From: Candidatus Caldarchaeum subterraneum
GTDB lineage: Archaea; Thermoproteota; Nitrososphaeria_A; Caldarchaeales; Caldarchaeaceae
Reading direction: 5' to 3'
DNA length: 64,000 nt
NCBI GenBank assembly: GCA_000270325.1
Contig: BA000048.1
Coordinates: forward strand, 1,605,481-1,669,480
Shown here: positions 26,170-45,574 of the stretch, piece by piece
Layout of the letters: each line of letters opens with the position of its first letter
How positions within the stretch are numbered: position 1 is the stretch's first letter
The notes under the pieces: generated by a model
What the model saw: the letters and a program-made list of their open reading frames with translations, nothing else
Told to the model about the DNA's origin: nothing
The model's database searches: none
Program-made: the position numbers and the translations under genes

Positions 26170-27144
26170 CTATTCACGGGAGTAGGGAACACCCAGCGCC
26201 GCGGGAACACCTATTCTCTTGCGCACAGACTCCGCGGACAACAGCGTCAATGTCACTATGGTTACTATGTAGGGGAGCATCAGGAGAAAATATGGAAGCT
26301 GAGCCGCCACGCCCACTAGCTGGAGCCTGAACTGGAGAGCCTCGACTCCGCCGAAGAGATAGGCGCCTAGGATTGCTCTCAGCGGGTTCCATGTCGCGAG
26401 GATGACGAGGGCGAGGGCGATGAAGCCGCGGCCCTGCGTCATCCCCTCTACCCAGAAGGGCTGGTAACCTATGAACAGATAGGCTCCGGCCAGTGAACCC
26501 AGCGCACCGCATATCGTCATCGCTATGTAACGGATGAGGAAGACGTTTACGCCGAGGGCGTCGGCCATCGACGGGTTTTCCCCCACGGAGCGTAGGCTAA
26601 GCCCGAAGCTTGTTTTGAACAAGATGAACCAGAGGACGCCGGCGAGGATAAGGGAGATGTACACAAGTATGTTGTGGCTGAATATCATGGGGCCGATGAT
26701 GGGGATGTTGACTAGGCCTGGGATAGGGATGGGCGGCAGCTTGGCCGCTTCCTGTGATGCGATGACGGCTGGGGAAGCCTCGGGGTTCAAAGCCAGAATT
26801 ATTCTCCCCCTTATCTCGTTTGAGGCAAGCAGGCCGCTCAGGCCAAGGCCAAGGACAGTGAAGGCCAACCCGACGACCACTTGGTTTAGTCTTAGGCTGA
26901 CCGTGAAAAGAGCGTGCATGAGACCCAGAGCAGCTCCCACCAACAACACCGTGGCGATGGCCCAGCCATGGCCCAGAGCGTTCGTGAAAATATAGGAAAG
27001 CGATGCACCCATTATCATCATCCCCTCCATGCCGAGGTTGAGCACCCCAGCGCGTTCAGCAACCGTTTCCCCGAGGGAAGCCAGTAGGAAAACTGTTCCA
27101 GACGCAACAGCTCCAACCAGCACAGATTCAACTAACTCAATCAT
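26170..27144 (-). CDS. nucleoside/simple-sugar ABC transporter permease
   Basis: Polytopic membrane protein in BMP-family transporter operon. Confidence 0.8.
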   Translation of the reverse strand: MIELVESVLVGAVASGTVFLLASLGETVAERAGVLNLGMEGMMIMGASLSYIFTNALGHGWAIATVLLVGAALGLMHALFTVSLRLNQVVVGLAFTVLGLGLSGLLASNEIRGRIILALNPEASPAVIASQEAAKLPPIPIPGLVNIPIIGPMIFSHNILVYISLILAGVLWFILFKTSFGLSLRSVGENPSMADALGVNVFLIRYIAMTICGALGSLAGAYLFIGYQPFWVEGMTQGRGFIALALVILATWNPLRAILGAYLFGGVEALQFRLQLVGVAAQLPYFLLMLPYIVTIVTLTLLSAESVRKRIGVPAALGVPYSRE

Positions 27145-28205
27145 TTCACAACCCTTAGCCTATATCGTTTGAAAAACTCGCCGAGGATAATCATCAGGAA
27201 GATTGTTGCTTGAAGTATCTGGATTGCTGGGAAGGGGAGGTTGAGTGTTGCCTGTATGACGTCACCGGCAACAAGTAATCCACCAAAGAAAATAGCGGCT
27301 GGAACAGCTAACCAAGGGTTGAGGGCCGCGAGAAAGGCTATGATTATGGCGGTGTATCCGTATCCGACGTAGGCGCTTGGAGGCCTCATCCTGCCGAGAA
27401 TGCCAGCGACTATTGAGAGACCACCTAACCCAGCCAACCCGCCAGCTATCAAGCTGCCGAGTAAAAGTGTCCGCCCAATCCTCACACCCGCGTACCTCGC
27501 CGCTTCATAGTTTTGTCCGAGAACCCTCATCTCGAAGCCCGCGGGCGTGTACAACATGAATCCATACAACAGCCCAGCGATTATGAAGGCGGCTGGGACG
27601 CCGACGTAAGCGGTGTGCCCTAGGATGGTGTCGAGCCTTGCGTATGGTGGGAAAACGATTGAGAGTGGGAAACCGAAACCTTTTGGGTCTCTCCACGGCC
27701 CGTGGATAAGATAGTTGACAAAATGGTATGCGACGTAGTTGAGCATAAGTGTTGGCAGAATTTCGTTTACGCCGAGCTTGGCTTTGAGAAACGCGGGTAA
27801 GGCACAGTATAAGCCACCTGCCAAAAATGACGACACAACCATGAGAGGAAGAACGAGAAAATCGGGAACAAGGCCATAGTAGACATGAAGCAATACAACA
27901 CCGGTTGCAGCGACCATGCCGAGGTATATCTGACCTTCGGCGCCTATGTTCCAGAAATTCATTTTGAAGGCCACGGTTAGACCGAGGGCCGCGAAGCCGA
28001 GTGGCAGCCCGCGGAGAGCAGCCTCTAGAAGCGTTCTCTCGCTGAAATAAACCTCGAAGAGACGCGTGATTACGTCAAAGGCGTTGACACCTAGGATTTC
28101 AAAAATGAGGCCAGCCACAAGAAAGCTGGCCGCGACGAAGATTACCGTGACCGCTGCGGAAAATTTACGCGAGAACTGGCCACGTTTCTCGAGTTTAAGC
28201 ATCAT
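27141..28205 (-). CDS. nucleoside/simple-sugar ABC transporter permease
   Basis: Polytopic membrane protein; overlaps neighbour. Confidence 0.8.
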   Translation of the reverse strand: MMLKLEKRGQFSRKFSAAVTVIFVAASFLVAGLIFEILGVNAFDVITRLFEVYFSERTLLEAALRGLPLGFAALGLTVAFKMNFWNIGAEGQIYLGMVAATGVVLLHVYYGLVPDFLVLPLMVVSSFLAGGLYCALPAFLKAKLGVNEILPTLMLNYVAYHFVNYLIHGPWRDPKGFGFPLSIVFPPYARLDTILGHTAYVGVPAAFIIAGLLYGFMLYTPAGFEMRVLGQNYEAARYAGVRIGRTLLLGSLIAGGLAGLGGLSIVAGILGRMRPPSAYVGYGYTAIIIAFLAALNPWLAVPAAIFFGGLLVAGDVIQATLNLPFPAIQILQATIFLMIILGEFFKRYRLRVVK

Positions 28206-29747
28206 CTAGGCGCTGACCTCCGCCCTCTTCACACCCGTCATCATCAGCCCGATTTCCTCCACGTCGTATTCTCCTTTTCTGAGAACACCCACTATCTCGC
28301 CCCGGTACATCACCATTATCCGGTCGCTGAGGCTAATCAATTCCTCGAGCTCCTCCGAGACAAGAAGCACAGCCACACCCTTTTCAGCTCTTCTAACCAG
28401 CTCTTGGTGAATCTGCTCTGTTGAGGCGATGTCAAGCCCGCGGGTGGGGTAGGCCGCCAATATCACTTTAGTGTTGGGTAGGATTCCCAGCTCACGGGCC
28501 AGGACAAGACGCTGAATGTTTCCGCCCGAAAGGTTTGCCACCTTGTTGGAGATCGTCGGTGTAACTATTCGGAAGGCTTTCACAAGCTCCTCAGCCTTCA
28601 GGTTAACATCCCGCCATCTTATCAGAAACCTATTGCCGAAAAGATGGTTTCTATATGCTTTGAGGACAAGGTTCTCTGCGACTGTCATTTCCGGTGCAGA
28701 GTAGCGTAGGGCCTCTGCAGGTATGTAGCTGACGCCGGCGTCGATTATCTCCTGTGGATGCCTGTTTGTGATGTCTACTCCGTCAAGCCATACTTTTCCG
28801 CGCACAATTTTCCTAAGGCCCGCGAGTGCTTCTAGAAGCTCTGTCTGACCGTTTCCCGAAACACCCGCTATGCCGAGAATCTCACCACGGTATAGCTTGA
28901 AGGAGACGTTTCGCACAGCCTCTAAGCCTTTGTCACCTAGGACCACGAGTCCCGATGCTTCGAGAACCGGTTTCGAAGTGTCAAGACTTCTTGTTGATGT
29001 TATTTTTAGCAGTGGTCTTCCAATCATGAGTTCAACCAGCTCCTCTATGTTTGTCTCGTTGACGTTTTTCGTGGCCACGTTTCTGCCAGCCCTCATAACA
29101 GTCACTCTATCGGCTACGTTGAAAACTTCCTCGAGCTTATGAGTAATTAAAACCACCCCCAGCCCCTGGGTAGCCATTTTGCGGAGAGTCTGGAAAAGCG
29201 CAACACTTTCCTGTGGAGTAAGCACGGACGTCGGCTCATCAAGTATGAGTATCCTCACTTTTCTGTAGAGTGCTTTGAGCAGCTCGACCTGCTGCTTCTC
29301 GCCGGCGGAGAGCTGCCATACACGTGCGTTGGGGGAGATTGTCCAGCCATATGTTTGTATCAGCTGGGTTAGCTCGTTGTTTATTTTGCGCTCGTTTATC
29401 ACGAAGCCGAGCTCCCTTAGCCCAAGGATGACGTTTTCAGCGACGGTGTGTACGGGTATGAGTTTGAACTGCTGATGAACCATCCCTATTCCAAGTGTGA
29501 GAGCGTCACGGGGGCCTCTGATGTCCACCTTCTTGCCGTACACCCATATCTCACCTGCGTCGGGCCTGTAGATGCCGTAGAGAATGTTCATCAAGGTGGA
29601 TTTTCCTGCACCGTTCTCGCCCAGCAGTGCGTGAACCTCGCCGGGCCTAAGCGTAAAATTCACATTATCATTAGCAACAACGTTGGGAAACTTCTTAACT
29701 ATGCCCCTCATCTCAACAAGGTGCTCGGGCCCGGACATGCGGACCAC
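28206..29747 (-). CDS. ABC transporter ATP-binding protein with duplicated ABC domains
   Basis: Two Walker A (GENGAGKST; GVSGNGQT) and two signature motifs. Confidence 0.85.
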   Translation of the reverse strand: MVRMSGPEHLVEMRGIVKKFPNVVANDNVNFTLRPGEVHALLGENGAGKSTLMNILYGIYRPDAGEIWVYGKKVDIRGPRDALTLGIGMVHQQFKLIPVHTVAENVILGLRELGFVINERKINNELTQLIQTYGWTISPNARVWQLSAGEKQQVELLKALYRKVRILILDEPTSVLTPQESVALFQTLRKMATQGLGVVLITHKLEEVFNVADRVTVMRAGRNVATKNVNETNIEELVELMIGRPLLKITSTRSLDTSKPVLEASGLVVLGDKGLEAVRNVSFKLYRGEILGIAGVSGNGQTELLEALAGLRKIVRGKVWLDGVDITNRHPQEIIDAGVSYIPAEALRYSAPEMTVAENLVLKAYRNHLFGNRFLIRWRDVNLKAEELVKAFRIVTPTISNKVANLSGGNIQRLVLARELGILPNTKVILAAYPTRGLDIASTEQIHQELVRRAEKGVAVLLVSEELEELISLSDRIMVMYRGEIVGVLRKGEYDVEEIGLMMTGVKRAEVSA

Positions 29748-29782
29748 GACAAAAATACAAAAAAATTGTTGAGAGTTTTTGT

Positions 29783-31132
29783 TTACCGCGGCAGCTCGCT
29801 TTGTATGTATTCAACGAACCAATCCATGTTCCATAGCATGTCTCTGTCGGCGCGTTCACTGCCCTTTATCCTGACTTCGCCTTTCTGGTCGCGTATCGGC
29901 TCACCAAGGTTGCCGTCTACGCTGAAGGGCTCGAACAAAAGCTCCTTCATCTCCTCATACCTCTTCTTGATCTCCAGCTGCCATTCCGAAGGTATGGCTG
30001 GGTTAAGCTTGCCGAGCTGAAGGGTTCCATCAACCTGCCCGGCTGTGCTCTGCTCTGGCGACCTTCTCCACCTATAGGGCATGTAGTCTCCTATTCTTGT
30101 CCAGATGTCGACGGTTCTCCACGTTCCTGTTGCAACCATTCTGTAAAAGTCCAAGTATATTGGGCCCCAGTTAACGATCTGGCCTGTTAGGTGGGCGTTT
30201 GGCCCGTAGCTGGACATGTCGTTGTAGTGGCTGAAGCTCCAGACCCTGCGGCCCTTCTGGGTGGTGTATTCTTCGGCTACCTGTAAGGTTGTTGGCGTGT
30301 CCTCTGTGAACGCAAGAACATCAGCGTTGGATTGTTCTATCAACGCCACTGCAGCCTCTCTTGCCTTACCAGGGTCAAACCATGCAAACAGCCAGCTTAC
30401 ATAGGCTTTGATGTTTCTCCCGGTTCTCTTCTTGTAGGCGTAGTTCGCTCCGAGGACGAAGGCGTTGATGTGTCTGACAACCTCGGGTATCGGGAAAGCA
30501 GCAACATATCCCACGACACCTGTCTGTGTAACGGCGCCGGCCGCGAGTCCGTTGAGGTAGTAGAGCTGGTAGAACTCTGCAAATGCGCTGCTCATGTTCT
30601 GTGGCGCATTTCCCGCGGCCCCGCTTCGGTATCCTGAGATGTGGACAAAGTATTTGTCGGGATACTTTGCGGCGACCTCGGCCGTCGAGTCCATGTAGCC
30701 AAAGCTGGTAGTTATTACAAGGTCTGCGCCTTGGTTGATGAGCGACTCGATTGCCCCGGCAGACTGCGCCTCTGGAACACTCTCTATGTAGAAGCTGTCA
30801 ACGTTCTTATAAGCGGCGTCCGCGAATTTTCTTCCTTCGTTGTGGGCGAAGGTCCATCCATAGTCTCCCACGGGGCCTACGTATATGTAGCCGACCTTCA
30901 GCCTCTTAGCAGGGGCCTGAACAGTCGTAGTCACCGTCGCACCTGGCCCCGTAACAGTTCTGGTAACTTCAGACGTAACTGTACGCGTCACCGCTGGCGC
31001 AGCCTGAGATGCTCCAAGAAAATATCCGGCAAGACCACCGACAACCGCTCCCGCCGCGACACCGCCGACCGCCGCACCAGTTGAGACAGCTAAAAACTTT
31101 CTTCTCGATATTCTGGATTTTTTCTCCATCAT
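29783..31132 (-). CDS. BMP-family (PnrA/Med-like) purine-nucleoside-binding lipoprotein with TM anchor and Thr/Val-rich linker
   Basis: BMP fold signature; N-terminal TM helix; TRTVTSEVTRTVTGPGATVTTTV linker. Confidence 0.75.
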   Translation of the reverse strand: MMEKKSRISRRKFLAVSTGAAVGGVAAGAVVGGLAGYFLGASQAAPAVTRTVTSEVTRTVTGPGATVTTTVQAPAKRLKVGYIYVGPVGDYGWTFAHNEGRKFADAAYKNVDSFYIESVPEAQSAGAIESLINQGADLVITTSFGYMDSTAEVAAKYPDKYFVHISGYRSGAAGNAPQNMSSAFAEFYQLYYLNGLAAGAVTQTGVVGYVAAFPIPEVVRHINAFVLGANYAYKKRTGRNIKAYVSWLFAWFDPGKAREAAVALIEQSNADVLAFTEDTPTTLQVAEEYTTQKGRRVWSFSHYNDMSSYGPNAHLTGQIVNWGPIYLDFYRMVATGTWRTVDIWTRIGDYMPYRWRRSPEQSTAGQVDGTLQLGKLNPAIPSEWQLEIKKRYEEMKELLFEPFSVDGNLGEPIRDQKGEVRIKGSERADRDMLWNMDWFVEYIQSELPR

Positions 31133-31162: not shown

Positions 31163-32953
31163 TTAATCCACTATCAGGTTTACGAATTGGAAGGTCACGG
31201 TGTCGAGCAGTCCTTTGTCGGTTATTCGTAGCTCAGGAATCACGCTTAGGCTGAGGAGTGAGAGGGTCATGAACGGTGATACCCATTCGCATCCAAGCCG
31301 CCGCCATACTTCATAGGTTTTGTTAAGCTTCTCGGCAACAACCTCAGCGGGTTCGGGTGACATGAGGCCCGCGAGGGGAAGCTCCACCCGCGCAAGCACC
31401 TCGCCATCCGCGACAGTGACTATGCCGCCGTTGATGCGGGCGTTCTCGTTCGCCGCAACCGCCATGTCTTTCTCGTCGAAGCCGATTACGAGTAGGTTGT
31501 GGCTGTCGTGCGCCACGGTGGATGCGACTGCTCCTTTTCTGAAACCGAACCCTGCCGCAAAGCCCGTGCTCATTCCACCGTGTTTGCCATGCCTCTCCAC
31601 GACCGCTATCTTGAAGATGCTTCTGTCGGGGTCGGGCTTCACCTCCCCGTTCTCAACCATAAGCCTCTCTATACGATGCTTGGTTATGACGCTGCCCTCA
31701 ACAGCCTGAATAACCCGCGCACGCACCTCGTCACCATCCACCTCCTCCCTAACAACAAAATCCTCAGGAGACAAGGGCCTAGACAGCTTCACGCTCCGCA
31801 TAAACCTCTCCGGATAACTGAAGCGGGGCAATTCTTTGACAAGCTTTCCATTCTCCGCAACAAGCTCGCCGTCGGCGAAAACCGTCTCAACCCTGAACCT
31901 CGCCAAATCGGAGACAAGCAAAATGTCTGCGACGCGGCCGGGAGAGATGCTGCCCAGCTCGTGGCTTAGACGGTATCTCTCAGCGGGGTTCAAGGTGGCC
32001 ATTTGAATGGCTGTCAGTGGGTCGACTCCTTCTTGGATGGCTCGGCGAACACAGTGGTCGACGTGACCATCCCGTAGGATGGATGCGGGCTCCTTGTCGT
32101 CGGTGCATAGACAGATATGCCTTGGGTCGATGCCTGTCTCCGTGTAGGCTCTGACTGTTTCCTTGATGTCTAGCCAAGCGCTCCCCTCCCTCAGGTAGAC
32201 ATACATGCCGTTCCTGAGCCTTTCGAGCGTCTGCTGCTTGGTGACGCTTTCATGGGTTGATAGTATGCCGGCGGCAACGTAGGCGGATAGCTCGCGGCCC
32301 AAGAGCCCCGAGTCATGGCCCTCAACAAGCTTCCCCGCCTTAAGCGTCTCAGCGATTTCTGCGTGCACCTTTTCATCGGCGGCTAGGACGCCGGGGAAAT
32401 TCATCATCTCACCCAAGGCAATCACTTCATCAAGCTTCATAGCCTCCGCGACCTCCTCAGGCGTTACAACTGCTCCCGCGGTCTCATACCCCGGGGCAGC
32501 GGGAACACAGGACGGGTAAGTCACATAAACCTTGAGAGGAAGGTTGCGTGACTCCTCAATCATGAGCTTGACGCCGTCAAGTCCGAATACGTTGCCTATC
32601 TCATGAGGGTCGATGAAGACTGCTGTGGTTCCGTGCGGGAGAATGATTCGAGCGAACTGGGTGACGCTCACCATCGAGCTCTCCACATGCACATGAGGGT
32701 CCAGTAAACCGGGGACGAGGAATTTGCCGGATGCATCAACGACGACGGTGTCTTCGCCTATGCAGGGTGTTGCGTCCCCCACCAAAGCGACGCGGCCCAT
32801 CCGCACAGCAACGTCAACACGCTCCACAATCTCCCGAGTATGCACATTCACAAGGTCACCGCCCTTCAGAACAAGGTCAGCCTTCTCCAGCCCCTGCGCC
32901 GTCCTTACAAGATGCCGCGTCACCTCAAACAGCCTAGACCTCATTACAAACAA
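31163..32953 (-). CDS. ade: adenine deaminase
   Basis: Amidohydrolase; ~596 aa; LVPGLLDPHVHVESSM metal-binding motif. Confidence 0.85.
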   Translation of the reverse strand: MFVMRSRLFEVTRHLVRTAQGLEKADLVLKGGDLVNVHTREIVERVDVAVRMGRVALVGDATPCIGEDTVVVDASGKFLVPGLLDPHVHVESSMVSVTQFARIILPHGTTAVFIDPHEIGNVFGLDGVKLMIEESRNLPLKVYVTYPSCVPAAPGYETAGAVVTPEEVAEAMKLDEVIALGEMMNFPGVLAADEKVHAEIAETLKAGKLVEGHDSGLLGRELSAYVAAGILSTHESVTKQQTLERLRNGMYVYLREGSAWLDIKETVRAYTETGIDPRHICLCTDDKEPASILRDGHVDHCVRRAIQEGVDPLTAIQMATLNPAERYRLSHELGSISPGRVADILLVSDLARFRVETVFADGELVAENGKLVKELPRFSYPERFMRSVKLSRPLSPEDFVVREEVDGDEVRARVIQAVEGSVITKHRIERLMVENGEVKPDPDRSIFKIAVVERHGKHGGMSTGFAAGFGFRKGAVASTVAHDSHNLLVIGFDEKDMAVAANENARINGGIVTVADGEVLARVELPLAGLMSPEPAEVVAEKLNKTYEVWRRLGCEWVSPFMTLSLLSLSVIPELRITDKGLLDTVTFQFVNLIVD

Positions 32954-34030: not shown

Positions 34031-34033
34031 CAT

Positions 34034-36694: not shown

Positions 36695-39015
36695 GCGAGG
36701 AAATAGCGAGACGGTTCAGGGAAATTCTGGAGGCCCGTGAATTCCTCATAGTCGGGAAAAAGGTTGCACGTGTAGACGCCCTCGACGCGATTCTCGGCAA
36801 ACCACTATACACAGCGGACCTCGTCTCAGGAAAAACACTCTACGTCAAAGCCGTCCGCTCCAAGATACCCCATGGCTACATCAGGAAAATAGACACGTCC
36901 CAGGCGGCTTCCCGGCAAGGTGTCGTCAAGGTGCTTACGCATCGGGACATACCCGGAGTAAACGACGGGGGAAGCCTGATAAGTGATAGACCTCTGCTGG
37001 CTTTTGAGAAGGTTAGACACGTCGGGGAAGCTGTTGCTCTCGTGGTCGGTGAGAGCTTGGAGGCTGCGGAGGAAGCGGCTGAACATGTGGAGATTGACTA
37101 TGACCCGCTTCCAGTGGTGACCAACCCTCGCGACGCCATGAAACCAGACGCTCCGCGGATACAGGACAGAGACAACGTGGTTACACACTTTAAGATAAGA
37201 AAAGGCGATGTGGAAAAGGGTTTCAAAGAATCCGATGTCGTCATCGAGCGGACATATCGCACACAGTTCATCACAGGTCTGCCTCTAGAGACAGAGATAG
37301 CATATTCTTTCCTAGAGGACGGAGGAAGGATTACATGCATAGTCTCAACCCAGAACCTCTACGATGTCTACAACAAGGTGGTGAAGATACTCGGCGTCCC
37401 CTCTGAAAAGCTGCGGGTGATTCAGGCGGCTACTGGAGGAGGCTTCGGCCCGAAAAGCGATGAGACACCGATAGACGTCGCAGCATACGCATGCCTCGCG
37501 ACATATTTCACCGGAAAACCTGCGCTGGCGGCGTTCAGCAGAAGCGAAGCGATGACGGTTCAGTGTAAACGCCATCCTTTTGAGATAACCAACATGGTTG
37601 GGGCGAGAAATGATGGAAAGCTGTTGGCTTGGCGGTCGACGCTTATCGAAGACACAGGCGCCTACATTTCGAAGGGTCACCTCGTCATCGGCCGCGCAAC
37701 CTTCCATTGCACGGGACCCTATGAGGTGCCGAATGTCTGGGCCGATGGCTACTGCGTCCTCACCAACAACACGATGGCGGGGTCTACACGTGGCTTCGGG
37801 GCGCCGCAGGCACATTTCGCGGCCGAGAGCGTGTTGAACGAGCTCGCCGAGGAGCTGGGCCTCTCGCCGCTTGAGATACGTGAGATAAACATGCTCCGCC
37901 CCGGCTCCCTCACAGCCACAAGCCAGAAAATCGAAGACGACGGCCTACTAAAGTGTTACCAGAGAGCTGTCGAGGAAAGCGAGTGGGAGAAGCGTGTGAG
38001 AGAAATACAGGAATTCAACAAAACAAACAAGGTCCTGAAAAAAGGTATTGGTATAGCGATGCTTTACCATGGCAACACTCTTGGACCAGAGGGCGACGAT
38101 TTCGCGACAGTGGTCACCTACGTTGAGAGAGACGGAAAAGTCGTTGTCCAGACAGGTTTAACAGAATACGGAACCGGGGCCCTAACCTCCCTCGCAATAG
38201 TTACAGCAGAAACACTCGGTCTACCGTTATCCATGGTGAAGCTCGAGAGACCCGACACAGCCGCCGTCCCCAACGCAGGGCCCACAGTCGCATCACGGAC
38301 AACCGTCATAGGAGGCCAGGCAGCCCTAGACGCCGCCCTCAAGATAAGGGCTATGGTTGCGCAGGTGGCTGCCAAGATGCTTTCATCCAATCCCGCGGAT
38401 TTGGAGTTCAGAGACGGGCTGGTGAAGGCTAATGGAAGGGCAGTGACTTGGAATGAAGTAGTTAACCAGTGTTTTGAGGAGAACATTTCTCTCCGCGTTG
38501 TTGGCTACTACATGGCTCCTCCGACCAAATGGGACCCTGAGACGGGCCAGGGAGCTCCCTACAACCAATACACCTACGGCGCGCTCGTCGCTGAGGTGAC
38601 CGTCGACACAGAGACTGGCATGGTCAAGGTTGATAGGCTAACCGCAGCATACGACGTGGGCCGCGCAATAAACCCGCTTGGGCTGGTCGCTGTCTATGAG
38701 GGGGGAAGCATCATGGGCCAAGGATACGCTTTGATGGAGAAGATTGTGCACGACGACGGTGTAGTCATCAACCCAAACCTGCACACATACATCATCCCAA
38801 CTGCCTCAGACGCCCCCGAAGAAATCCGCAGCATCATCGTCGAGGTCAAGGGCAGCATGGGTGTCTTCGGAGCCAAAGCCATGGGAGAAATACCCGTCGT
38901 CCTCCCCGCAGCATCAATAGCCGCAGCCGTTGCAAACGCCACAGGCATCTACATAAGGGAGCTACCGCTAACACCTCAAAGAGTGCTTGAGGAGCTCCAC
39001 AAATCCAGACAATAA
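36691..39015 (+). CDS. xanthine dehydrogenase family, molybdopterin-binding large subunit
   Basis: 774 aa; aldehyde oxidase/XDH a/b hammerhead + MoCo domains (GGGFG motif). Confidence 0.9.
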   Translation: MSEEIARRFREILEAREFLIVGKKVARVDALDAILGKPLYTADLVSGKTLYVKAVRSKIPHGYIRKIDTSQAASRQGVVKVLTHRDIPGVNDGGSLISDRPLLAFEKVRHVGEAVALVVGESLEAAEEAAEHVEIDYDPLPVVTNPRDAMKPDAPRIQDRDNVVTHFKIRKGDVEKGFKESDVVIERTYRTQFITGLPLETEIAYSFLEDGGRITCIVSTQNLYDVYNKVVKILGVPSEKLRVIQAATGGGFGPKSDETPIDVAAYACLATYFTGKPALAAFSRSEAMTVQCKRHPFEITNMVGARNDGKLLAWRSTLIEDTGAYISKGHLVIGRATFHCTGPYEVPNVWADGYCVLTNNTMAGSTRGFGAPQAHFAAESVLNELAEELGLSPLEIREINMLRPGSLTATSQKIEDDGLLKCYQRAVEESEWEKRVREIQEFNKTNKVLKKGIGIAMLYHGNTLGPEGDDFATVVTYVERDGKVVVQTGLTEYGTGALTSLAIVTAETLGLPLSMVKLERPDTAAVPNAGPTVASRTTVIGGQAALDAALKIRAMVAQVAAKMLSSNPADLEFRDGLVKANGRAVTWNEVVNQCFEENISLRVVGYYMAPPTKWDPETGQGAPYNQYTYGALVAEVTVDTETGMVKVDRLTAAYDVGRAINPLGLVAVYEGGSIMGQGYALMEKIVHDDGVVINPNLHTYIIPTASDAPEEIRSIIVEVKGSMGVFGAKAMGEIPVVLPAASIAAAVANATGIYIRELPLTPQRVLEELHKSRQ

Positions 39016-39269
39016 AACACCTGCAACACCGTGAAAAACCCAGCGAGCAAGGCACACGTGTAAATACCTCCTAAACCTATTCATGATTGAGAGGGCGCGG
39101 CCCTTTGGAAACAATAGTCGGTGGCGACGTAAAAATTCATGAAGACTGTTTGAGGCTGGACAAATACTTCGACAAGCTATCCTGACGTGTGGGAATCAGG
39201 TATGCCCGAGGAATATTTTTCTGAAAGTGAGGCGGCGGAGGCCATCACGAGGGCTGAGAATGTTTTGGG

Positions 39270-39566
39270 TTGGGTGAGGTCGAGATGGGGGTCTTTGAGA
39301 AAAGAAAGATGATGAGAAAGGCGGCGGTTGAAGCTGCTGTTGAAGCGGTCGAGTTAGTGGAGAAGATTGTGGGCCCTGTTTCGGCTGCTTTGATAGGCTC
39401 ATACGCGAGAGGAGACTTTAATCAGTGGAGCGACGTGGACCTGCTTGTAGTGTCTCCAAGGTTTGCACCGACTCCTCTCAACAGGTTTGATCAGGTCGCC
39501 GATGTTTTGAAAAAGTTTCCAAGCCTTGAGATAATACCTTTGACGCTGAGAGGCAGAGAAGGCTGA
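39270..39566 (+). CDS. minimal nucleotidyltransferase (MNT) domain protein
   Basis: GSYARGDF...SDVDLLVV motif; ~98 aa. Confidence 0.7.
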   Translation: MGEVEMGVFEKRKMMRKAAVEAAVEAVELVEKIVGPVSAALIGSYARGDFNQWSDVDLLVVSPRFAPTPLNRFDQVADVLKKFPSLEIIPLTLRGREG

Positions 39567-39698
39567 AGACGCCTTTGGCGGAGGAGACTATGTGGACAGG
39601 TGTGGTCATAAAGGATGCGTTGGGAATTTTTCTCAAGAGCCAAACCATATGAGAGAAAGAATGAGATGAATGAATTTTTAAGCGGTTTTCATCGTGAT

Positions 39699-39707
39699 GT
39701 ATAAATT
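39699..39707 (+). promoter_or_regulatory. TATA box (GTATAAATT) ~26 nt upstream of leaderless ATG 39729
   Basis: Archaeal box-A consensus and spacing. Confidence 0.5.
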
Positions 39708-39728
39708 GCTGTAAAAATAGATGTATGC

Positions 39729-40748
39729 ATGACTCTGACGGAGCTGTTTGGCAGGGACCTGATTTCTTCACAGGATTGGAGTATTGAGGAGATCGATGCG
39801 GCGATGGATTTGGCGCGGAGCTTGAAGATTGCCAGGGCCTCTGGAAATGTTCCCGAGCTTTTCAAGAACAGGACCATGTTCATGCTCTTCTACAACACCA
39901 GCACAAGGACGAGGGCGAGTTTTGAAGCAGCCGCGACCATGTTGGGAGGACACGCCCAGTTCATCGACTTCGCCACCACACGCGGGGCAGAGGGAGAGTC
40001 GGTCAAGGACATAGCCAAGATGTATGAGAGGCTGGGCCATGTCCTCGGCGTCCGGATACTCGAGTCAGCTGTGGACTATGTCTATGGGAGAGGGAACGCT
40101 GTCGTTAGAGAGTATGCGGAGCACGCGAAAATTCCCGTCATCAACATGGCTGATGACATGTTTCACCCTAGCCAAGCCATCACAGACCTCTACACGTTGC
40201 GGGAGAAGCTTGGACGGGTTGAGAAGAAAAAATATGTCTTGATGTGGGCTTATAGCGACAAGGTTCGCAGCTGGGGAAGCATACAGGATGAGATGCTGAT
40301 AGCCACCCGATATGGCATGGATGTTGTCCTCGCTTATCCTCCTGGCTTCGACATAGACGAGAACCTTGTGAAGCTTGCGAAAAAGAACGCTGAGGAGAGC
40401 GGCGGCACGCTGACCATCAGCCACAATTACAAAGAGGCGCTGGAGAACGCGGATGCTGTTTTTCCGAGAAGCTGGGCAAGCCACGAATGTGTAATCACAG
40501 GCATGAATAGGTTCGGCCGGGAAAGAGAAATCGAGTTGCACAACAAATACAGGGATTGGAAGCTTACACGTGAGTTGACAGACCTCATGTCGCGGCATGG
40601 TATAGTGACGCATGTGCTCCCCGTGTTCCGTGGACAGGAGGCTGATGACGATGTCATGGACGGGCCGCGAAGCGTGATCTACGACCAGGCCGAGAACCTA
40701 CTCTATGTAAGAGCGGCTATACTGTCGCTAGTGGCTGGAAAAATTTAG
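39729..40748 (+). CDS. YgeW-type transcarbamylase-family protein (not OTC/ATC; substrate unknown)
   Basis: STRTR carbamoyl-P motif, HPSQ; lacks OTC DxxxSMG and HCLP (has RSWASHE, HVLPV); WAYS...GMDVVLAYPPGFDI resembles YgeW as recalled. Confidence 0.75.
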   Translation: MTLTELFGRDLISSQDWSIEEIDAAMDLARSLKIARASGNVPELFKNRTMFMLFYNTSTRTRASFEAAATMLGGHAQFIDFATTRGAEGESVKDIAKMYERLGHVLGVRILESAVDYVYGRGNAVVREYAEHAKIPVINMADDMFHPSQAITDLYTLREKLGRVEKKKYVLMWAYSDKVRSWGSIQDEMLIATRYGMDVVLAYPPGFDIDENLVKLAKKNAEESGGTLTISHNYKEALENADAVFPRSWASHECVITGMNRFGREREIELHNKYRDWKLTRELTDLMSRHGIVTHVLPVFRGQEADDDVMDGPRSVIYDQAENLLYVRAAILSLVAGKI

Positions 40749-41701
40749 GGAATAAAGTGGGTTCCCGCCGAGCCTTTTAAAGCTTCCTTAAATTGAGAAA
40801 GCTCGGCGATCACTGCCTCTTTGCCGCCTGCCTCGATGAACCTAATGCAAGCCAACACCTTGGGAAGCATCGAGCCTGAGCCGAAATGTCCCTGCTCGAG
40901 GTAGCGTCTCGCCTCAGCCGCTGACACTTTCTCCAGCTTCTTCTGGTCGGGTTTTCCAAAGTTTAGGTAGGCTCCGTCGACATCCGTCAGAATGATGAAA
41001 CGGTCCGCCCCGATTAATTCGGCTAGCCTCTCGCCGGCGAGGTCTTTGTCGATTACAGCCTCCACTCCATATGCTTTGCCGTTTTCTTCAACTATCGGTA
41101 TTCCGCCTCCGCCGCTTGCCACAACTATGAACCCTTCGTCAACCAGCTTCCTTATAGCATGTCTCTCGGCGATGATTTTTGGGTCGGGTGACGGCACCAC
41201 CCTTCTCCAGCCTCCGCGGGCCTTGTCCTCCACGAAAACGTACTCGGGATGCTCCGCCTTGATCTTCTCCATCTCCTCTTTTTTGTAGAATGGGCCGATG
41301 GGTTTGGTCGGGTTGCTGAACGCTGGGTCGTTTTTGTCGACGATCACCCGTGTCACGACGGTTATTACGTATTTGTCGATGCCGCGTCGCTTGAGCTCGT
41401 TGCGGAGGTTTTGCTGGATGATGTAGCCTATGAAGCCCTGTGTCTCGGCTCCGCAGGCATCCATGGGGAATGCCGGGATGTTGTGTAGCTTCTGGCCAGC
41501 GTCATGACGTAGTAGTGTTGCACCGACCTGTGGGCCGTTGCCATGGGTGATGACAAGCCGGTGACCAGCTTCAACGATGTCGGCGAGATACTTAGCCGCC
41601 TCACCCACGTTCTTATACTGCTCCTCGAAAGACCCCTTGTCACCTCTTCTCAAAAGCGCGTTGCCTCCAAGAGCCACAACGATGAGCTCGCTTCTATCCA
41701 T
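40745..41701 (-). CDS. arcC: carbamate kinase
   Basis: N-terminal VVALGGNAL...ITHGNGPQVG; full-length 318 aa. Confidence 0.9.
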   Translation of the reverse strand: MDRSELIVVALGGNALLRRGDKGSFEEQYKNVGEAAKYLADIVEAGHRLVITHGNGPQVGATLLRHDAGQKLHNIPAFPMDACGAETQGFIGYIIQQNLRNELKRRGIDKYVITVVTRVIVDKNDPAFSNPTKPIGPFYKKEEMEKIKAEHPEYVFVEDKARGGWRRVVPSPDPKIIAERHAIRKLVDEGFIVVASGGGGIPIVEENGKAYGVEAVIDKDLAGERLAELIGADRFIILTDVDGAYLNFGKPDQKKLEKVSAAEARRYLEQGHFGSGSMLPKVLACIRFIEAGGKEAVIAELSQFKEALKGSAGTHFIP

Positions 41702-41718
41702 GTCGGCATCACTTTTTT

Positions 41719-42963
41719 CTATGATAAATACTTCATCAGCTCACTCAGAGAGGGGCGTATGAGCGGAAGCTCGGCTGTGGAGGCAACTTTCTCCGGTTCT
41801 TTCAGCCCCGAGGCGGTCACCAGAACAACCACCGTGTCCGAGGCTTCTACAACTCCTTGTTCAAGGAGTTTCTGGACAGCGGCCACCCCCACGGCGCCTG
41901 ATGGCTCGGCAAAAACCCCTTCAAGACGGGCCAGCTTCTTTACAGCCTCTCTAATTTCATCCTCTTCAACTGCGACAGCCGTTCCACCGGTTGTTCTCAC
42001 ACCCTCCATCGCCGCGTCACCGTCCCATGGATAGGGGTCGAGAAGACCTGATGCTATGGATTTGGGCCACTTTTCCGGCTCGACCTCCTCGAATCTTTTG
42101 CCTTGAAGAATTGCTCTGACGAGAGGCATGTTTCCGCTGGGCTGGACCGGCACCAACTTGGGATAGCTCTCGATTAACCCGAGTAGACGCAGTTCTTTCA
42201 ACGCTTTCCATATTCCTGTGGCGAGGCAGCCCGAGCCCGTTGGGATGAAGACAAAGTCGGGAACACCCCAGCCCATCTGCTCAACCATCTCATATACGAT
42301 GGTTTTGGGCCCCTCGACTTGGTACGGGTTGAAGGGGCCGAAGCTTGGGCAGGGGTACCAGCCCAGCTCTTTGACAGTCTGCATCATAAGGTCAACCGTT
42401 GGGTCACGTCCCTCTTCGACCTGCTTGACGCGTAGAACCCTCGCACCATAGAGCAAAAGCTGCGAGGCCTTCCCCATCGCAACGTCCTCTGGAACAAAAG
42501 CCGTGCACCGTAGACCAAGAGAGGCGCTGTAAGCGGCCAGAGAAGATGCAGCGTTACCGCTCGAGGCTATGACCACATCCCTTCTACCCATTTCAACAGC
42601 CTTCGCGGCGCCCACAGCCATCGCACGGTCCTTGAACGACGCCGTCGGGTTACGCGTCTCATCCTTGAGAAAAAGCCTCTTGACACCGAGTTCTCCGCCG
42701 AGTCGCTGAGCATGGAGCAAAGGCGTGTTACCTTCACTTAGTGGAGAAGCGTAACGCTGGTCAACGGGGATAAGCTCCCAGTAACGCCAAACCCCTCTTG
42801 GAGCACGCTTCTCAATCGAGGCCTTGGAAAAAGACTCGGCTACCCGGTCATAGTCGTAAACTATGTCCAAGCGGCCGTTGTCGTTTTTTCTGCAGAGGAT
42901 TGGGTTGCTCGACGGATGGTATTCTGTCCCGCATCGTGAACAAACCATTTTTTCGACAAACAA
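41719..42963 (-). CDS. threonine-synthase-like fold-type-II PLP enzyme with N-terminal zinc ribbon
   Basis: SFKDRAMA lysine motif; N-terminal CSRCG...C; 414 aa. Confidence 0.7.
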   Translation of the reverse strand: MFVEKMVCSRCGTEYHPSSNPILCRKNDNGRLDIVYDYDRVAESFSKASIEKRAPRGVWRYWELIPVDQRYASPLSEGNTPLLHAQRLGGELGVKRLFLKDETRNPTASFKDRAMAVGAAKAVEMGRRDVVIASSGNAASSLAAYSASLGLRCTAFVPEDVAMGKASQLLLYGARVLRVKQVEEGRDPTVDLMMQTVKELGWYPCPSFGPFNPYQVEGPKTIVYEMVEQMGWGVPDFVFIPTGSGCLATGIWKALKELRLLGLIESYPKLVPVQPSGNMPLVRAILQGKRFEEVEPEKWPKSIASGLLDPYPWDGDAAMEGVRTTGGTAVAVEEDEIREAVKKLARLEGVFAEPSGAVGVAAVQKLLEQGVVEASDTVVVLVTASGLKEPEKVASTAELPLIRPSLSELMKYLS

Positions 42964-42967
42964 GCGG

Positions 42968-43399
42968 CTACACCCTGTTAATGCTGAATCTGCAGACGCC
43001 TCCGCCCGCTGCTCTGCAAAGCTCCTCCTGAACAGTTACACCCCTGCCGTAGACCGACTCAGCTATACCGGCTATAATCCCCGAGAGGAAACTACACGCA
43101 GGCGTTTTCTCATGCTCCAGACCCTCGCAGAAAACACAATTCTCGAAAACCACCACCATTTTCCCGACTGTCTCGAAGTTGTCGCTGACGGTTATCTTTC
43201 CCCAGCCTGACCTCTGCGCAGCCTTTGCCAGAAGCTCAACAGCCTCCCCCGATGTCTTCGCCATACTCTTTGTCCTCCTCCCCAACGCAAAACCATACTT
43301 GTTGCCCATGTGCCACAGCAAAGTGTCAACAGCGGGCCTCGACATAGACTCTGAGAGAAGAACCCGCATCTCGGCGAAAAGCCTCCCAGACAGCACCAA
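42968..43399 (-). CDS. V4R (4-vinyl reductase) domain protein
   Basis: V4R cysteine pattern C.FC.G...C. Confidence 0.65.
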   Translation of the reverse strand: MVLSGRLFAEMRVLLSESMSRPAVDTLLWHMGNKYGFALGRRTKSMAKTSGEAVELLAKAAQRSGWGKITVSDNFETVGKMVVVFENCVFCEGLEHEKTPACSFLSGIIAGIAESVYGRGVTVQEELCRAAGGGVCRFSINRV

Positions 43400-43472
43400 T
43401 ACTCTGCCGCCGAGTAAAGGGTCTTTGACAATTCCATGCGTGTCGTCGTATTCGAACCCCGCTATATCCCTA

Positions 43473-44501
43473 TCACCTAATTATCTCAAGCCTCTGTAAA
43501 TGCTTCTCCCTGACGGTTTTCGTGTATTCGTCTAGGGGATGCTCACGCTCGGGGACGGTGGTTTTCTTACCCTCGCCATACAGCTCCGTTGAGAGATATC
43601 TGTTACCTGAGTCGCATATCAGTGTCACTATTTTTCGTAGGTTTGGATGCTTTTTGGCGACTTTGACCGCGGCGGCGACGTTGCATCCAGAGGATATCCC
43701 GCCAAATATTCCTTCGAGGCGTGCTAGCTGTCTAGCCATCGCGATTGACTCGTCGGAGGTTGTTGTCACTACTCCGTCGCATACGCCGAGGTCTAGGTTG
43801 CGGGGTATGAAGCCGTCGCCTATGCCCTCGATTTTGTGTGAACCCCATCTGCCTTCGCTTATGATGGGTGCTTCGCTGGGCTCGACTGTGTATATCTTCA
43901 CACTCGGGTTCTTCTCTTTGAGAAATTTTCCTACTCCGCTGACTGTTCCTCCTGAGCCCTGCGACATCACGAAAGCATCCACTTTGCCTTTTGTCTGCTC
44001 CCATATCTCGGGCCCCGTGGTTTTGATGTGGGCTTGGATGTTGTCGGGGTTGGTGAACTGGTTGGGGAACCAGTATTTGCCCGGGTTTTGCCTCATCATT
44101 TCCTCGGCTTTTCTGAGGCTGAGGTCGACATCAGACTCTGCGCCCGGTGTGAAGACGAGGTTGCCGCCGAAAGCTTTTATCAGCTGTTTACGTTCCTCGC
44201 TCATTCCCTCGGGCATAACTATGGTGACCCTGTAGCCGAGATGTGTTCCGACAAAGGTGCATGCTATACCTGCGTTGCCCGTCGAGACCTCGAGAATCTC
44301 CATCCCCGGTCTGAGGTCACCCCTCTCAATGGCCTTCGTTATCATCTCGCGGTATATGCGGTCTTTTAGGCTGCCCGAGGGGTTGTAGAACTCGAGCTTA
44401 GCCCATATCTCCGCCTCTACTCCATGTTGTTTCTCAATATGTCGTAGTCTGAGAAGGGGTGTGTTGCCTATGAGGTCGAGAATGTCTTCACCTGTTCTCA
44501 T
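43473..44501 (-). CDS. cysK: cysteine synthase / O-phosphoserine sulfhydrylase family (fold-type-II PLP)
   Basis: GNTPL, SxKDR, TSGNAG-like motifs. Confidence 0.85.
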   Translation of the reverse strand: MRTGEDILDLIGNTPLLRLRHIEKQHGVEAEIWAKLEFYNPSGSLKDRIYREMITKAIERGDLRPGMEILEVSTGNAGIACTFVGTHLGYRVTIVMPEGMSEERKQLIKAFGGNLVFTPGAESDVDLSLRKAEEMMRQNPGKYWFPNQFTNPDNIQAHIKTTGPEIWEQTKGKVDAFVMSQGSGGTVSGVGKFLKEKNPSVKIYTVEPSEAPIISEGRWGSHKIEGIGDGFIPRNLDLGVCDGVVTTTSDESIAMARQLARLEGIFGGISSGCNVAAAVKVAKKHPNLRKIVTLICDSGNRYLSTELYGEGKKTTVPEREHPLDEYTKTVREKHLQRLEIIR

Positions 44502-45574
44502 CTTCTTCCCATCGTCATAGACATGACTGCTTTCTGCACGTGCAGCCTGTTCTCAGCCTGTTGGAAGTAGAGCGAGTAGCGTGGGCTGTCTATAACCTCG
44601 TCGACAACCTCCTGGCCTCTGTCGGCTGGGCCGCAGTGCATGTATTTGCCTCTGTTGGTCAAATCCATCAACTCGGGAGTGGTTATCCAGTTTTTGAACT
44701 GGTCCTGATACTTCATAGCTCCTTCCTTGTCAACGGTTGAGTTGTATGGTGGGAAGAATTTCTTCGGAGACCATGCTTTTGGATAGACAAAGTCCGCTCC
44801 TTCGAAGGCTTCTTTCATGTCGTTTGTGATGGTGAAGGAGCCGCCGTACTGCTCCACGTTTTTCTTGCACGCTTCTATGACGTGGTCCTCGAGCTCGAAG
44901 CCGGGTGGATGAGCTAGGACAACATCCATGGCGAATTGTGTGCCTATGAGTATGCAGCTTTGGGGGACGGCGAGGGGCTTCAAGCCTCCTGAGTAGGCGT
45001 AGGAGACGACGAATTTTTTGCCGCGGGGCTTGGGTGCAACATCCTGTATAGCCATCATGTCTGCGAGGGCTTGGAACGGGTGGTAAATGTCGTCCTCCAT
45101 GTTGAGGACAGGAATAGTCGCCCATTTTGCGAACTCTTGAATGACCCTGTGGCCTCTGCCGATGTGCCACTTCGCCGCGTCACCATAAATCCTGACAGCT
45201 ATTGCGTCGCCATATGTGCTGAGAACACGTGCCACGTCTGCAATGGATTCTGTCTGATAGGGTATCATGTCCTCGGGAAGTGTTGGTGTATAGACGTCCG
45301 AGGGGCTGAGGAAATGTGCGTGACCACCTAGCTGATATATTCCGGCTTCGAAGCTGTTGCGGGTGCGTAGTGAGCGGTTGTAGAAGAGCATGAAAAGCGT
45401 CTGTCCTTTGAGATACTCTGTGGGTTTGCGTGCACGGAATTTTTCCCGCAGGTCTCGTGCAGCCTTGAGAATGTTGTTTATCTGCTCTTGGCTGTAGTCG
45501 TTTGTGTTTAGGAAATCTTTTCCACGAAGGGCTCCTATGTAGGATGGTTTTCCTGCTTTAGTTTTCTTAGCCAT
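44498..45574 (-). CDS. YgeW-type transcarbamylase-family protein (paralog 2)
   Basis: SLRTR motif, HPFQ, ...VYPKAWSP..., MHCGPAD...; lacks OTC/ATC specificity motifs; resembles E. coli YgeW as recalled. Confidence 0.75.
   Translation of the reverse strand: MAKKTKAGKPSYIGALRGKDFLNTNDYSQEQINNILKAARDLREKFRARKPTEYLKGQTLFMLFYNRSLRTRNSFEAGIYQLGGHAHFLSPSDVYTPTLPEDMIPYQTESIADVARVLSTYGDAIAVRIYGDAAKWHIGRGHRVIQEFAKWATIPVLNMEDDIYHPFQALADMMAIQDVAPKPRGKKFVVSYAYSGGLKPLAVPQSCILIGTQFAMDVVLAHPPGFELEDHVIEACKKNVEQYGGSFTITNDMKEAFEGADFVYPKAWSPKKFFPPYNSTVDKEGAMKYQDQFKNWITTPELMDLTNRGKYMHCGPADRGQEVVDEVIDSPRYSLYFQQAENRLHVQKAVMSMTMGRR

Follow-up and report, generated by a model that had tools for sequence, protein, structure and literature searches.

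We read a cluster of genes at positions 26170-45574 of a 64-kb stretch of archaeal DNA (the window), from gene content and context, as an archaeal counterpart to the pathway of reductive purine/urate (2,8-dioxopurine) catabolism, and we put the probability of this reading at about 0.62. The cluster brings together a nucleoside importer, an adenine deaminase, a luciferase-like (LLM) oxidoreductase, an SsnA-like amidohydrolase, a three-subunit molybdenum (Mo) enzyme of the xanthine dehydrogenase (XDH) family, two carbamoyltransferases (TC1 and TC2), a carbamate kinase (CK) and two enzymes of fold type II that use pyridoxal phosphate (PLP). An initial annotation of this DNA had described a purine uptake and catabolism island resembling the bacterial ygeW/ssnA/xdh cluster and running an ATP-yielding fermentation; comparative genomics supports the island and the resemblance, and leaves the fermentation and its ATP yield as a proposal. 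The genes of the cluster are as follows.

26170-27144, minus strand: permease (BPD_transp_2)
27141-28205, minus strand: permease (BPD_transp_2)
28206-29747, minus strand: double ABC ATPase (ABC_tran, two copies)
29783-31132, minus strand: Bmp-family binding protein (Pfam Bmp, 117 bits)
26170-31132, minus strand: the four genes above, together a Bmp/PnrA-type nucleoside ABC importer (Bmp 117 bits, two ABC_tran and two BPD_transp_2 domains)
31163-32953, minus strand: adenine deaminase (TIGR01178 561 bits, cutoff 472.5; Adenine_deam_C 220 bits)
33023-34030, plus strand: LLM oxidoreductase (Pfam Bac_luciferase, 239 bits)
34034-35397, plus strand: SsnA-like amidohydrolase, full gene (best NCBIfam models, SsnA)
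35399-36232, plus strand: XDH-family FAD subunit (Pfam domains)
36239-36694, plus strand: XDH-family 2Fe-2S subunit (Pfam domains)
36691-39015, plus strand: XDH-family Mo subunit (Pfam domains; best NCBIfam model, XdhA-type XDH)
39729-40748, plus strand: carbamoyltransferase TC1 (OTCace_N and OTCace domains)
40745-41701, minus strand: CK (TIGR00746 430.7 bits, cutoff 358.25)
41719-42963, minus strand: ThrC-family PLP enzyme, fold type II (PALP 260 bits; PRK08197 324 bits, cutoff 303)
42968-43399, minus strand: small V4R-domain protein (Pfam V4R, 50 bits)
43473-44501, minus strand: CysK-family PLP enzyme, fold type II (TIGR01139 364 bits, cutoff 351)
44498-45574, minus strand: carbamoyltransferase TC2, like acetylornithine carbamoyltransferase (AOTCase; model NF003384 283.6 bits, cutoff 288)

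Genes were called from a listing of open reading frames (ORFs) together with Pfam and NCBIfam profile scans, in which the curated NCBIfam cutoffs served as the test of family membership. All of the gene families named in the initial annotation were recovered at the positions it gave them, and every cluster gene except the SsnA-like one matches its own profile across nearly its full length. The terms 'crenarchaeal', 'Thermoproteales' and 'hyperthermophilic', which had also been applied to this DNA, found no support: the proteins match those named Candidatus Caldarchaeum (TC1 at 87-99% identity, the SsnA-like protein at 77-96%), and the stretch from the ribosomal protein S7 gene to SsnA agrees with a C. 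subterraneum metagenome-assembled genome (MAG) at 93-98% protein identity. Candidatus Caldarchaeum belongs to the Aigarchaeota (NCBI phylum Nitrososphaerota, order Caldarchaeales).

The pathway with which we compare the cluster, the reductive uric-acid/2,8-dioxopurine pathway of E. coli and Clostridium, was worked out in 2025, and its bacterial gene set comprises xdhD-ygfM, ygfK, ssnA, hyuA, ygeW, yqeA, ygeY, as well as ygeX (Li et al., PMC12507026; Liu et al., bioRxiv 10.1101/2025.04.24.650524). In these bacteria, XdhD (DOPDH) reduces urate to 2,8-dioxopurine, the ring of which is then reduced by YgfK or by the PydA-like UacX; HyuA opens a hydantoin to give 2,3-diureidopropionate; YgeW cleaves one ureido group with phosphate to yield carbamoyl phosphate, from which the carbamate kinase YqeA makes ATP; YgeY hydrolyses the second ureido group; and YgeX converts 2,3-diaminopropionate to pyruvate and ammonia (PMC12507026; bioRxiv 10.1101/2025.04.24.650524). 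SsnA is related to PydB, and UacX to PydA (PMC12507026).

The same gene families are linked across archaeal orders

A scan of one genome per GTDB species, mostly MAGs, with an SsnA alignment yielded 80 loci, each taken with 10-kb flanks; these loci were searched with the window proteins, and their ORFs were clustered. At every locus with an SsnA homologue that is at least 58% identical, the LLM gene lies directly upstream of SsnA. The lineages concerned are Caldarchaeum spp., archaeon HR01, Pelearchaeum, Benthortus, Calditenuis and three Nitrososphaerales/Nitrososphaeria groups, and they make up an LLM-linked set of 32 loci (L007-L037, L085), including three that start at SsnA and for which we infer the LLM linkage. 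TC1 and/or TC2 are present in 20/32 of these loci, CK in 16/32 and the XDH Mo subunit in 18/32. Among the 12/32 that have no carbamoyltransferase, nine lack sequence on the relevant side, and the other three (L017, L018 and L020) have 2-10 kb there. The gene for the ThrC-family enzyme (ThrC-like) was found in 17 of the 80 loci, and that for the CysK-family enzyme (CysK-like) in 12.

The order of these genes differs from lineage to lineage. Two Nitrososphaerales MAGs have the order hydantoinase, CK, LLM, SsnA, (deaminase-like,) TC1, XDH, ThrC-like, CysK-like, TC2; another Nitrososphaerales group begins with XDH and TC1 and continues, after intervening genes, with LLM, SsnA, hydantoinase, deaminase-like, CK and a phosphoribosyltransferase-like ORF; and in Calditenuis the order is TC2, ABC, LLM, SsnA, ThrC-like, hydantoinase, Ade-like. 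That the same families are linked in such different arrangements indicates that their clustering is not due to chance, and argues for a single pathway. We take this linkage, surviving rearrangement across Caldarchaeales and Nitrososphaerales, to be the strongest available evidence that the genes act jointly, and it upholds the expectation of the initial annotation that the genes would be conserved together in related genomes.

Outside the LLM-linked set, SsnA is accompanied by a UacX-like gene at L039, L057, L069, L072 and L090. In a Desulfurococcales MAG (L069), genes for SsnA, UacX-like, CysK-like, ThrC-like and YgeY-like proteins run in the same direction, and at a second Desulfurococcales locus (L058) SsnA is followed by the CysK-like gene. 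L090, a metagenome contig on which a histone gene is likewise found, has TC1-like, CK, hydantoinase-like, SsnA-like (52% identity) and UacX-like genes. SsnA is also paired with a UacX-like gene at loci from Baldrarchaeota and Heimdallarchaeota; most SsnA homologues in Asgard MAGs stand alone, and at one Heimdallarchaeota locus a UacX-like gene is the neighbour.

The Bmp-type transporter adjoins LLM-SsnA in Pelearchaeum, Benthortus and a Nitrososphaeria MAG too (L018-L020, L032). The adenine deaminase, which passes the TIGR01178 equivalog cutoff and has the C-terminal domain, is separated from the divergently oriented LLM operon by a 69-bp spacer, and in other lineages Ade-like or DadD/MtaD-like deaminases stand at the equivalent position.

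A candidate F420-dependent reductase beside the SsnA-like amidohydrolase

The LLM and SsnA-like genes are 3 nt apart in the window. The top NCBIfam matches of the LLM protein are LLM families of the F420 class, all under their cutoffs (the best, Mer-like, at 208 bits), and the FMN-type LLM families appear only lower in its list; furthermore, 8/8 of its PDB matches are F420 enzymes (Mer or FGD). The enzyme is thus probably F420-dependent, and F420 biosynthesis is commonly encoded by TACK archaea (PMC8498797). Bearing in mind that tblastn gave no YgfK or UacX homologue in the 64-kb window, and that the F420-type LLM occupies that position, we propose that it acts as a 2,8-dioxopurine reductase and is a functional stand-in for YgfK/UacX. 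A likeness to this arrangement comes from the neighbourhood network reported with the bacterial pathway in 2025, which is confined to bacteria: it predicts, in Chloroflexota, a variant in which an LLM (PF00296)/F420 protein lies next to SsnA in place of YgfK/UacX, as it does in the window.

The SsnA-like protein has SsnA models as its best NCBIfam matches, at 329/311 bits for the truncated ORF and 358/336 bits for a full-length relative, P0121 (cutoffs 444/455). Its identity to E. coli SsnA is 32% (172 bits, against 100 bits for GuaD), and the paralogous amidohydrolases at the same loci match GuaD or DadD better than SsnA. We propose that the SsnA-like enzyme carries out the pyrimidine-ring-opening step.

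The reading frame of this gene is broken in the window. Compared with P0121 (454 aa, 96% identical), one G is missing after position 35236, such that 'gtgag' stands in place of 'gtg gag'; the ORF ends at 35266, with the C-terminal ~50 codons lying in the +1 frame up to a stop codon at 35395-35397, which ends one base ahead of the start of the FAD subunit. An exact-sequence lookup of the 410-aa ORF gave no match because of this frameshift. Either the assembly is in error here, or the lesion is real and makes a pseudogene, in which case the pathway would be broken in this organism.

The molybdenum enzyme

Directly downstream of the SsnA-like gene are the FAD, 2Fe-2S and Mo subunits of the XDH-family enzyme, and this XDH-SsnA arrangement is kept in 18 LLM-SsnA loci. 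The Mo subunit scores 512/504 bits with the NCBIfam models for XdhA-type XDH (cutoffs 780/916), and 283/248 bits with those for CO dehydrogenase; its identities to E. coli XdhA and XdhD are 33% and 30%, respectively. The distance between 512 bits for XDH and 248-283 bits for CO dehydrogenase rules out the latter, and on this point the initial assignment to XDH is not refuted. 4-hydroxybenzoyl-CoA reductase scores 316 bits in a PDB search, much the same as bovine XDH at 310 bits.

With respect to the active site, E733, R335, R367 and F369 of the Mo subunit correspond to E1261, R880, R912 and F914 of bovine XDH and are conserved. The position of bovine E802 is taken by S256, and Leu/Gly align to Phe1009/Thr1010. 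In E. coli XdhA and XdhD, residue 802 is replaced by Gln and Arg880 is missing. A purine-specific enzyme is plausible; the protein may alternatively be an aldehyde oxidoreductase or an enzyme like 4-hydroxybenzoyl-CoA reductase. We propose that the trio is a purine hydroxylase and/or a urate 6-dehydroxylase. No selenium-maturation genes lie near the trio.

Two carbamoyltransferases of a distinct clade

The transcarbamylases had been labelled 'YgeW-type', a label that did not survive comparison with the curated models: the YgeW models (TIGR03316 / NF005538), which have cutoffs of 500 and 453, give 149-157 bits for TC1 and 146-149 bits for TC2. Both proteins are in fact under every NCBIfam family cutoff. 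TC1 scores 223 bits with the AOTCase model and 205 bits with that for ornithine carbamoyltransferase (OTC); with the OTC model TIGR00658 (cutoff 281), TC2 scores 229 bits. TC1 and TC2 are 38% identical to each other and 29-31% identical to E. coli YgeW, which is the best E. coli paralogue for both (148 bits; for TC1/TC2, ArgI scores 111/140 and PyrB 68/82). Among PDB entries, TC1 is closest to P. furiosus OTC (182 bits) and TC2 to Xanthomonas AOTCase (219 bits), the latter a likeness that is also seen in the near-cutoff AOTCase score of TC2; YgeW-type structures follow at ~125-131 bits. AOTCase and YgeW both count among the knotted carbamoyltransferases.

Alignment shows that TC1 and TC2 keep the carbamoyl-phosphate motifs S-x-R-T-R and HPxQ, and that they are without the OTC motifs DxxxSMG and HCLP and the aspartate carbamoyltransferase (ATC) motif RxQxER. 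In their place, TC1 has PRSWASHE (with a YgeW-like PRSWAS motif) and HVLP, and TC2 has PKAWSPKK and HCGP; the carbamoyl-phosphate motifs of TC2 read SLRTR and HPFQ. A P[RK][SA]WA/S segment and loop insertions are common to TC1, TC2 and YgeW. By motif and score, TC1 and TC2 form a distinct clade that is neither ordinary OTC/ATC nor the YgeW family, and the possibility that they are an ordinary OTC or ATC, on which the initial annotation would have foundered, is ruled out by the missing substrate motifs and the cutoffs. We propose that TC1 cleaves one ureido group by phosphorolysis to carbamoyl phosphate, and that TC2 cleaves the other.

The carbamate kinase is 47% identical to E. coli YqeA. It travels with the cluster and not with arginine deiminase, so the concern that it belongs to an arginine deiminase pathway falls away. 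The arginine and agmatine deiminase pathways do offer a chemical likeness, namely ureido cleavage with phosphate by a carbamoyltransferase of the ATC/OTC fold, followed by ATP formation by carbamate kinase; they differ in that the cluster has no arginine or agmatine deiminase, that TC1 and TC2 are without SMG and HCLP, and that the partner genes are purine-related. In many archaeal lineages, TC1 has CK and/or the ThrC-like gene as a neighbour.

PLP enzymes proposed to take the place of YgeX

The ThrC-like and CysK-like enzymes have Aquifex ThrC (203 bits) and CysK (286 bits), respectively, as their nearest PDB entries, and their resemblance to E. coli YgeX is at the level of the superfamily only (23-24% identity over part of the length). 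The ThrC-like gene accompanies SsnA or TC1 in Calditenuis, Nitrososphaerales, Conexivisphaerales and Desulfurococcales; the CysK-like gene, which overlaps TC2 by 4 nt in the window, adjoins TC2 in Caldarchaeum, HR01 and two Nitrososphaerales MAGs, and adjoins SsnA in Desulfurococcales (L058, L069). Both travel with SsnA whatever the reductase, and with a carbamoyltransferase or a YgeY-like amidase alike. Their retention beside SsnA across these variants argues that they are pathway components in the role of YgeX, and not bystanders. We propose that they dispose of 2,3-diaminopropionate.

The small V4R-domain protein encoded between the two PLP genes has homologues (39-49% identical) at the same position in Caldarchaeum loci only, and is a possible ligand-sensing regulator. 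In archaeon HR01 (L033, ~10170), the place of V4R between the ThrC-like and CysK-like genes is taken by a distant LLM paralogue (29% identical).

A candidate for the second ring opener

An ATP-dependent hydantoinase A/B pair with a gene of the Asp/Glu-racemase superfamily lies upstream of the cluster (19652-23973, plus strand), separated from it by the genes for ribosomal protein S7 and phosphoenolpyruvate (PEP) carboxylase. The initial annotation had offered this pair as a ring opener, a role that we could not uphold: HydA, HydB and the racemase-like gene are present in 0/80 of the related loci (the 10-kb flanks of the Caldarchaeum loci end just short of the expected place), and in sister lineages the role falls to a HyuA-type D-hydantoinase, which Caldarchaeum encodes at another site. 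We thus rule out hydantoinase A/B as the ring opener, and it is probably unrelated to the pathway.

The D-hydantoinase in question emerged from the ORF clustering as a family of 460-480 aa, located within the cluster at 17 loci outside Caldarchaeum. It passes the cutoff of the D-hydantoinase/dihydropyrimidinase equivalog TIGR02033 (476 bits, cutoff 393), and is 36% identical to E. coli HyuA over the full length. A more distant hydantoinase (29-34% identical) lies divergently upstream of the SsnA homologue in ~25 loci, mostly from Bathyarchaeia. Caldarchaeum species, including the reference C. subterraneum, also encode a D-hydantoinase (51-55% identity), and in two Caldarchaeum contexts (L088, 6453-11371; L092, 2470-7443) it adjoins a second XDH-family trio, again made up of Mo, 2Fe-2S and FAD subunits. 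The Mo subunit of this second trio is 41% identical to that of the window and has the same Ser-802/Arg-880 signature. The bacterial route from hypoxanthine needs two molybdenum enzymes, XDH and a urate 6-dehydroxylase, a need that two XDH-family trios would fit.

Proposed route and its relation to the bacterial pathway

From these assignments we hypothesize the following route. The Bmp-type ABC system would import nucleosides or bases, and adenine deaminase would supply hypoxanthine. XDH-family enzymes, one trio in the window and the second elsewhere in Caldarchaeum genomes, would take hypoxanthine to urate and then remove the 6-oxo group to give 2,8-dioxopurine, which the F420-type LLM would reduce with F420H2, replacing YgfK/UacX. 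The SsnA-like amidohydrolase would open the six-membered ring to 5-ureidomethylhydantoin, and the five-membered ring would be opened to 2,3-diureidopropionate by the HyuA-type D-hydantoinase, which is absent from the window and lies beside the second XDH trio in Caldarchaeum relatives. TC1 and TC2 would then cleave ureido groups with phosphate to form carbamoyl phosphate, from which, with ADP, carbamate kinase would make ATP, CO2 and NH3. Finally, the ThrC- and CysK-family enzymes would dispose of 2,3-diaminopropionate in the role of YgeX, presumably to pyruvate and NH3. The stoichiometry, hypoxanthine + 6 H2O -> pyruvate + 2 CO2 + 4 NH3, is redox-neutral; no external electron acceptor would therefore be needed, and the term 'fermentation' is chemically coherent.

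The cluster shares with the bacterial pathway an XDH-family Mo enzyme beside an SsnA-type amidohydrolase, a carbamoyltransferase paired with a carbamate kinase, fold-type-II PLP enzymes and, in sister lineages, a HyuA-type hydantoinase. On the other hand, an F420-type LLM stands where bacteria have YgfK/UacX; two non-YgeW carbamoyltransferases are present and YgeY is not (a search for it found no match in the 64-kb window); and ThrC- and CysK-family enzymes stand where they have YgeX. The XDH of the window is also different, being three-subunit, with Ser at E802, with Arg880 kept and with no selenium-maturation genes nearby. We consider the system best classed as a variant, in which the pathway logic and several enzymes are shared, and the reductase, the ureido-cleavage and PLP components and the domain of life differ.

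No archaeal description of such a cluster was found in the literature searched: neither 2025 pathway paper mentions archaea; genome papers on Aigarchaeota/Caldarchaeales make no mention of purine catabolism, xanthine dehydrogenase or carbamate kinase; and a paper on non-ammonia-oxidising Thaumarchaeota is likewise silent on purine catabolism. A 2025 survey of nitrifier MAGs reports finding no known upstream purine-degradation genes in ammonia-oxidising archaea. The screening thresholds of Liu et al. (e.g., YgeW at >=63% identity, 4/7 genes; bioRxiv 10.1101/2025.04.24.650524) would miss the Caldarchaeum cluster, which may be a reason for the lack of an earlier report.

Competing explanations

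Several observations weigh against a reductive purine pathway. No enzyme in the window reaches the cutoff of its bacterial counterpart (SsnA, 329-358 against 444 bits; XDH, 512 against 780; YgeW, 146-157 against 453-500), the window's 64 kb contain no HyuA-type hydantoinase, the SsnA-like gene there is frameshifted, and the cluster-linked Mo subunits of Nitrososphaerales, which are 36-42% identical to that of the window, are without an equivalent of Arg880. The ThrC-like and CysK-like enzymes pass the ordinary threonine synthase and cysteine synthase A cutoffs, and could be housekeeping enzymes. In Conexivisphaerales (L005/L006), TC1, the ThrC-like gene and CK form a trio with no SsnA, LLM or XDH within 10 kb, and TC1 homologues (59-67% identical) stand by themselves in two further MAGs, one Asgard and one labelled Micrarchaeaceae (L089, L091). 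The occurrence of TC1 homologues away from the pathway partners means that the carbamoyltransferase family is not purine-specific, and it is mainly because this family is not confined to purine clusters that our confidence is not higher.

These carbamoyltransferase occurrences, together with a TC1 gene that has only the ThrC-like gene as its partner in L002-L004 and a 714-bp insertion with a nucleotidyltransferase gene that splits the two halves of the cluster in the window, would be expected of two unrelated modules: a left one (transporter, adenine deaminase, LLM, SsnA-like, XDH) for purines or another N-heterocycle, and a right one (TC1, CK, ThrC-like, V4R, CysK-like, TC2) that catabolises some other ureido amino acid, or that makes carbamoyl phosphate and carbamoylated amino acids, CK serving as the synthetase as it does in Pyrococcus. 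However, the halves co-localise in at least five lineages in shuffled orders (e.g., Calditenuis, JOPF Nitrososphaerales, L090), the Desulfurococcales CysK-like and ThrC-like genes are co-directional with SsnA and a UacX-like reductase, and the gap between the Mo subunit and TC1 is only ~25 nt in other Caldarchaeum genomes; we regard two separate modules as unlikely.

A single pathway might instead act on another ring, such as that of pyrimidines or 5-substituted hydantoins, by way of a Pyd-like reductase, a cyclic amidohydrolase and ureido cleavage, with phosphorolysis of N-carbamoyl-beta-alanine or a similar compound feeding carbamate kinase. Bmp transporters also take pyrimidine nucleosides, the linked hydantoinase passes the cutoff of a dihydropyrimidinase equivalog model, and the kinship of SsnA with PydB and of UacX with PydA is in keeping with such a substrate. 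Left unexplained, however, are the XDH-family enzymes, the adenine/DadD-like deaminases and the purine phosphoribosyltransferase-like neighbours, as is the need for both SsnA-type and hydantoinase-type openers, two ring openers being in keeping with a bicyclic purine; this substrate assignment seems to us quite improbable. Lower still in our estimation, and most improbable, is an ordinary juxtaposition of housekeeping threonine synthase, cysteine synthase, ornithine/aspartate carbamoyltransferases and an anabolic carbamate kinase beside a CO- or aldehyde-oxidising Mo enzyme. The cutoffs passed by the two PLP enzymes, and the public annotation of the TC1 family as 'ornithine carbamoyltransferase', would agree with it, but the absence of DxxxSMG, HCLP and RxQxER from carbamoyltransferases that are under all OTC and ATC cutoffs, the CO dehydrogenase scores of 248-283 bits against 512 for XDH, and the persistence of the LLM-SsnA linkage across archaeal orders do not.

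Returning to the purine pathway, we tentatively venture a broader proposal, about which we are doubtful: that archaea own a widespread reductive purine pathway (Caldarchaeales, Nitrososphaerales, Desulfurococcales, Bathyarchaeia), and that in Caldarchaeum TC2 (AOTCase-like) and TC1 (OTC-like) might phosphorolyse both ureido groups, for up to two ATP per purine via one carbamate kinase, with F420H2 as the ring reductant and ThrC/CysK in place of diaminopropionate ammonia-lyase, giving thermophilic and soil archaea a self-contained purine fermentation and ammonia source. The most speculative step is the double phosphorolysis, which is suggested by the presence of two transferases and no YgeY; lineages with a single carbamoyltransferase, near which no YgeY is recognisable, speak neither for nor against it.

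Almost nothing has been charted of how archaea catabolise purines. If our reading is correct, a gut-bacterial pathway described in 2025 would reach into a second domain of life, as well as into hot springs and soils, with a different cofactor solution (F420) and possibly a more energy-efficient double phosphorolysis. Functions would also be gained for families that are auto-annotated as ornithine carbamoyltransferase, threonine synthase, cysteine synthase and methylthioadenosine/S-adenosylhomocysteine (MTA/SAH) deaminase, and nucleic-acid bases would be indicated as supplying Caldarchaeales and Nitrososphaerales with energy, carbon and ammonia.

Neighbouring genes and other observations

The LLM-SsnA cluster of some Nitrososphaerales (L025-L028, L034) is flanked by a DadD/MtaD-like deaminase (NCBIfam). 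At the same loci we noted a 195-aa ORF like a type-I phosphoribosyltransferase and an APC-family-like permease as flanks, both recognised from sequence alone.

On the importer side of the cluster, an archaeal-type PEP carboxylase gene (24599-26167) lies on the same strand as the last transporter permease, with a 2-nt gap, and appears to be co-transcribed with the nucleoside importer; this arrangement is kept only within Caldarchaeum. Downstream of TC2 are genes for a MenA-like prenyltransferase, a PNPOx-like protein, an MFS transporter and subunits of an A-type ATP synthase, and we found no reason to count them as members of the cluster. The PNPOx-like protein (46922-47395) has a weak Pfam match (22.5 bits, under the gathering score), and no conserved linkage with the cluster was seen. 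The PNPOx-like fold includes many F420-dependent reductases.

The 714-bp insertion between the XDH Mo subunit and TC1 (39016-39728) contains the following gene.

39270-39566: nucleotidyltransferase of the MNT type (NTP_transf_2), 98 aa

It also contains a 41-aa ORF (39187-39312) that, judged by its sequence and nothing else, resembles a HEPN-type fragment; if that call holds, the two would constitute a toxin-antitoxin-like remnant.

Elsewhere in the window, we observed a complete archaeal 16S rRNA gene (56674-58165, minus strand) with no 23S gene adjoining, and a 5S rRNA gene (59095-59211) ~0.9 kb from it on the opposite strand. An Rfam tRNA match of 101 nt (61294-61394) is probably intron-containing and was not called by ARAGORN. 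Also of interest is a ThyX (Thy1) protein (1566-2972), which at 468 aa is ~2x the usual length and has two matched stretches, and this suggests a tandem-domain or fused ThyX.

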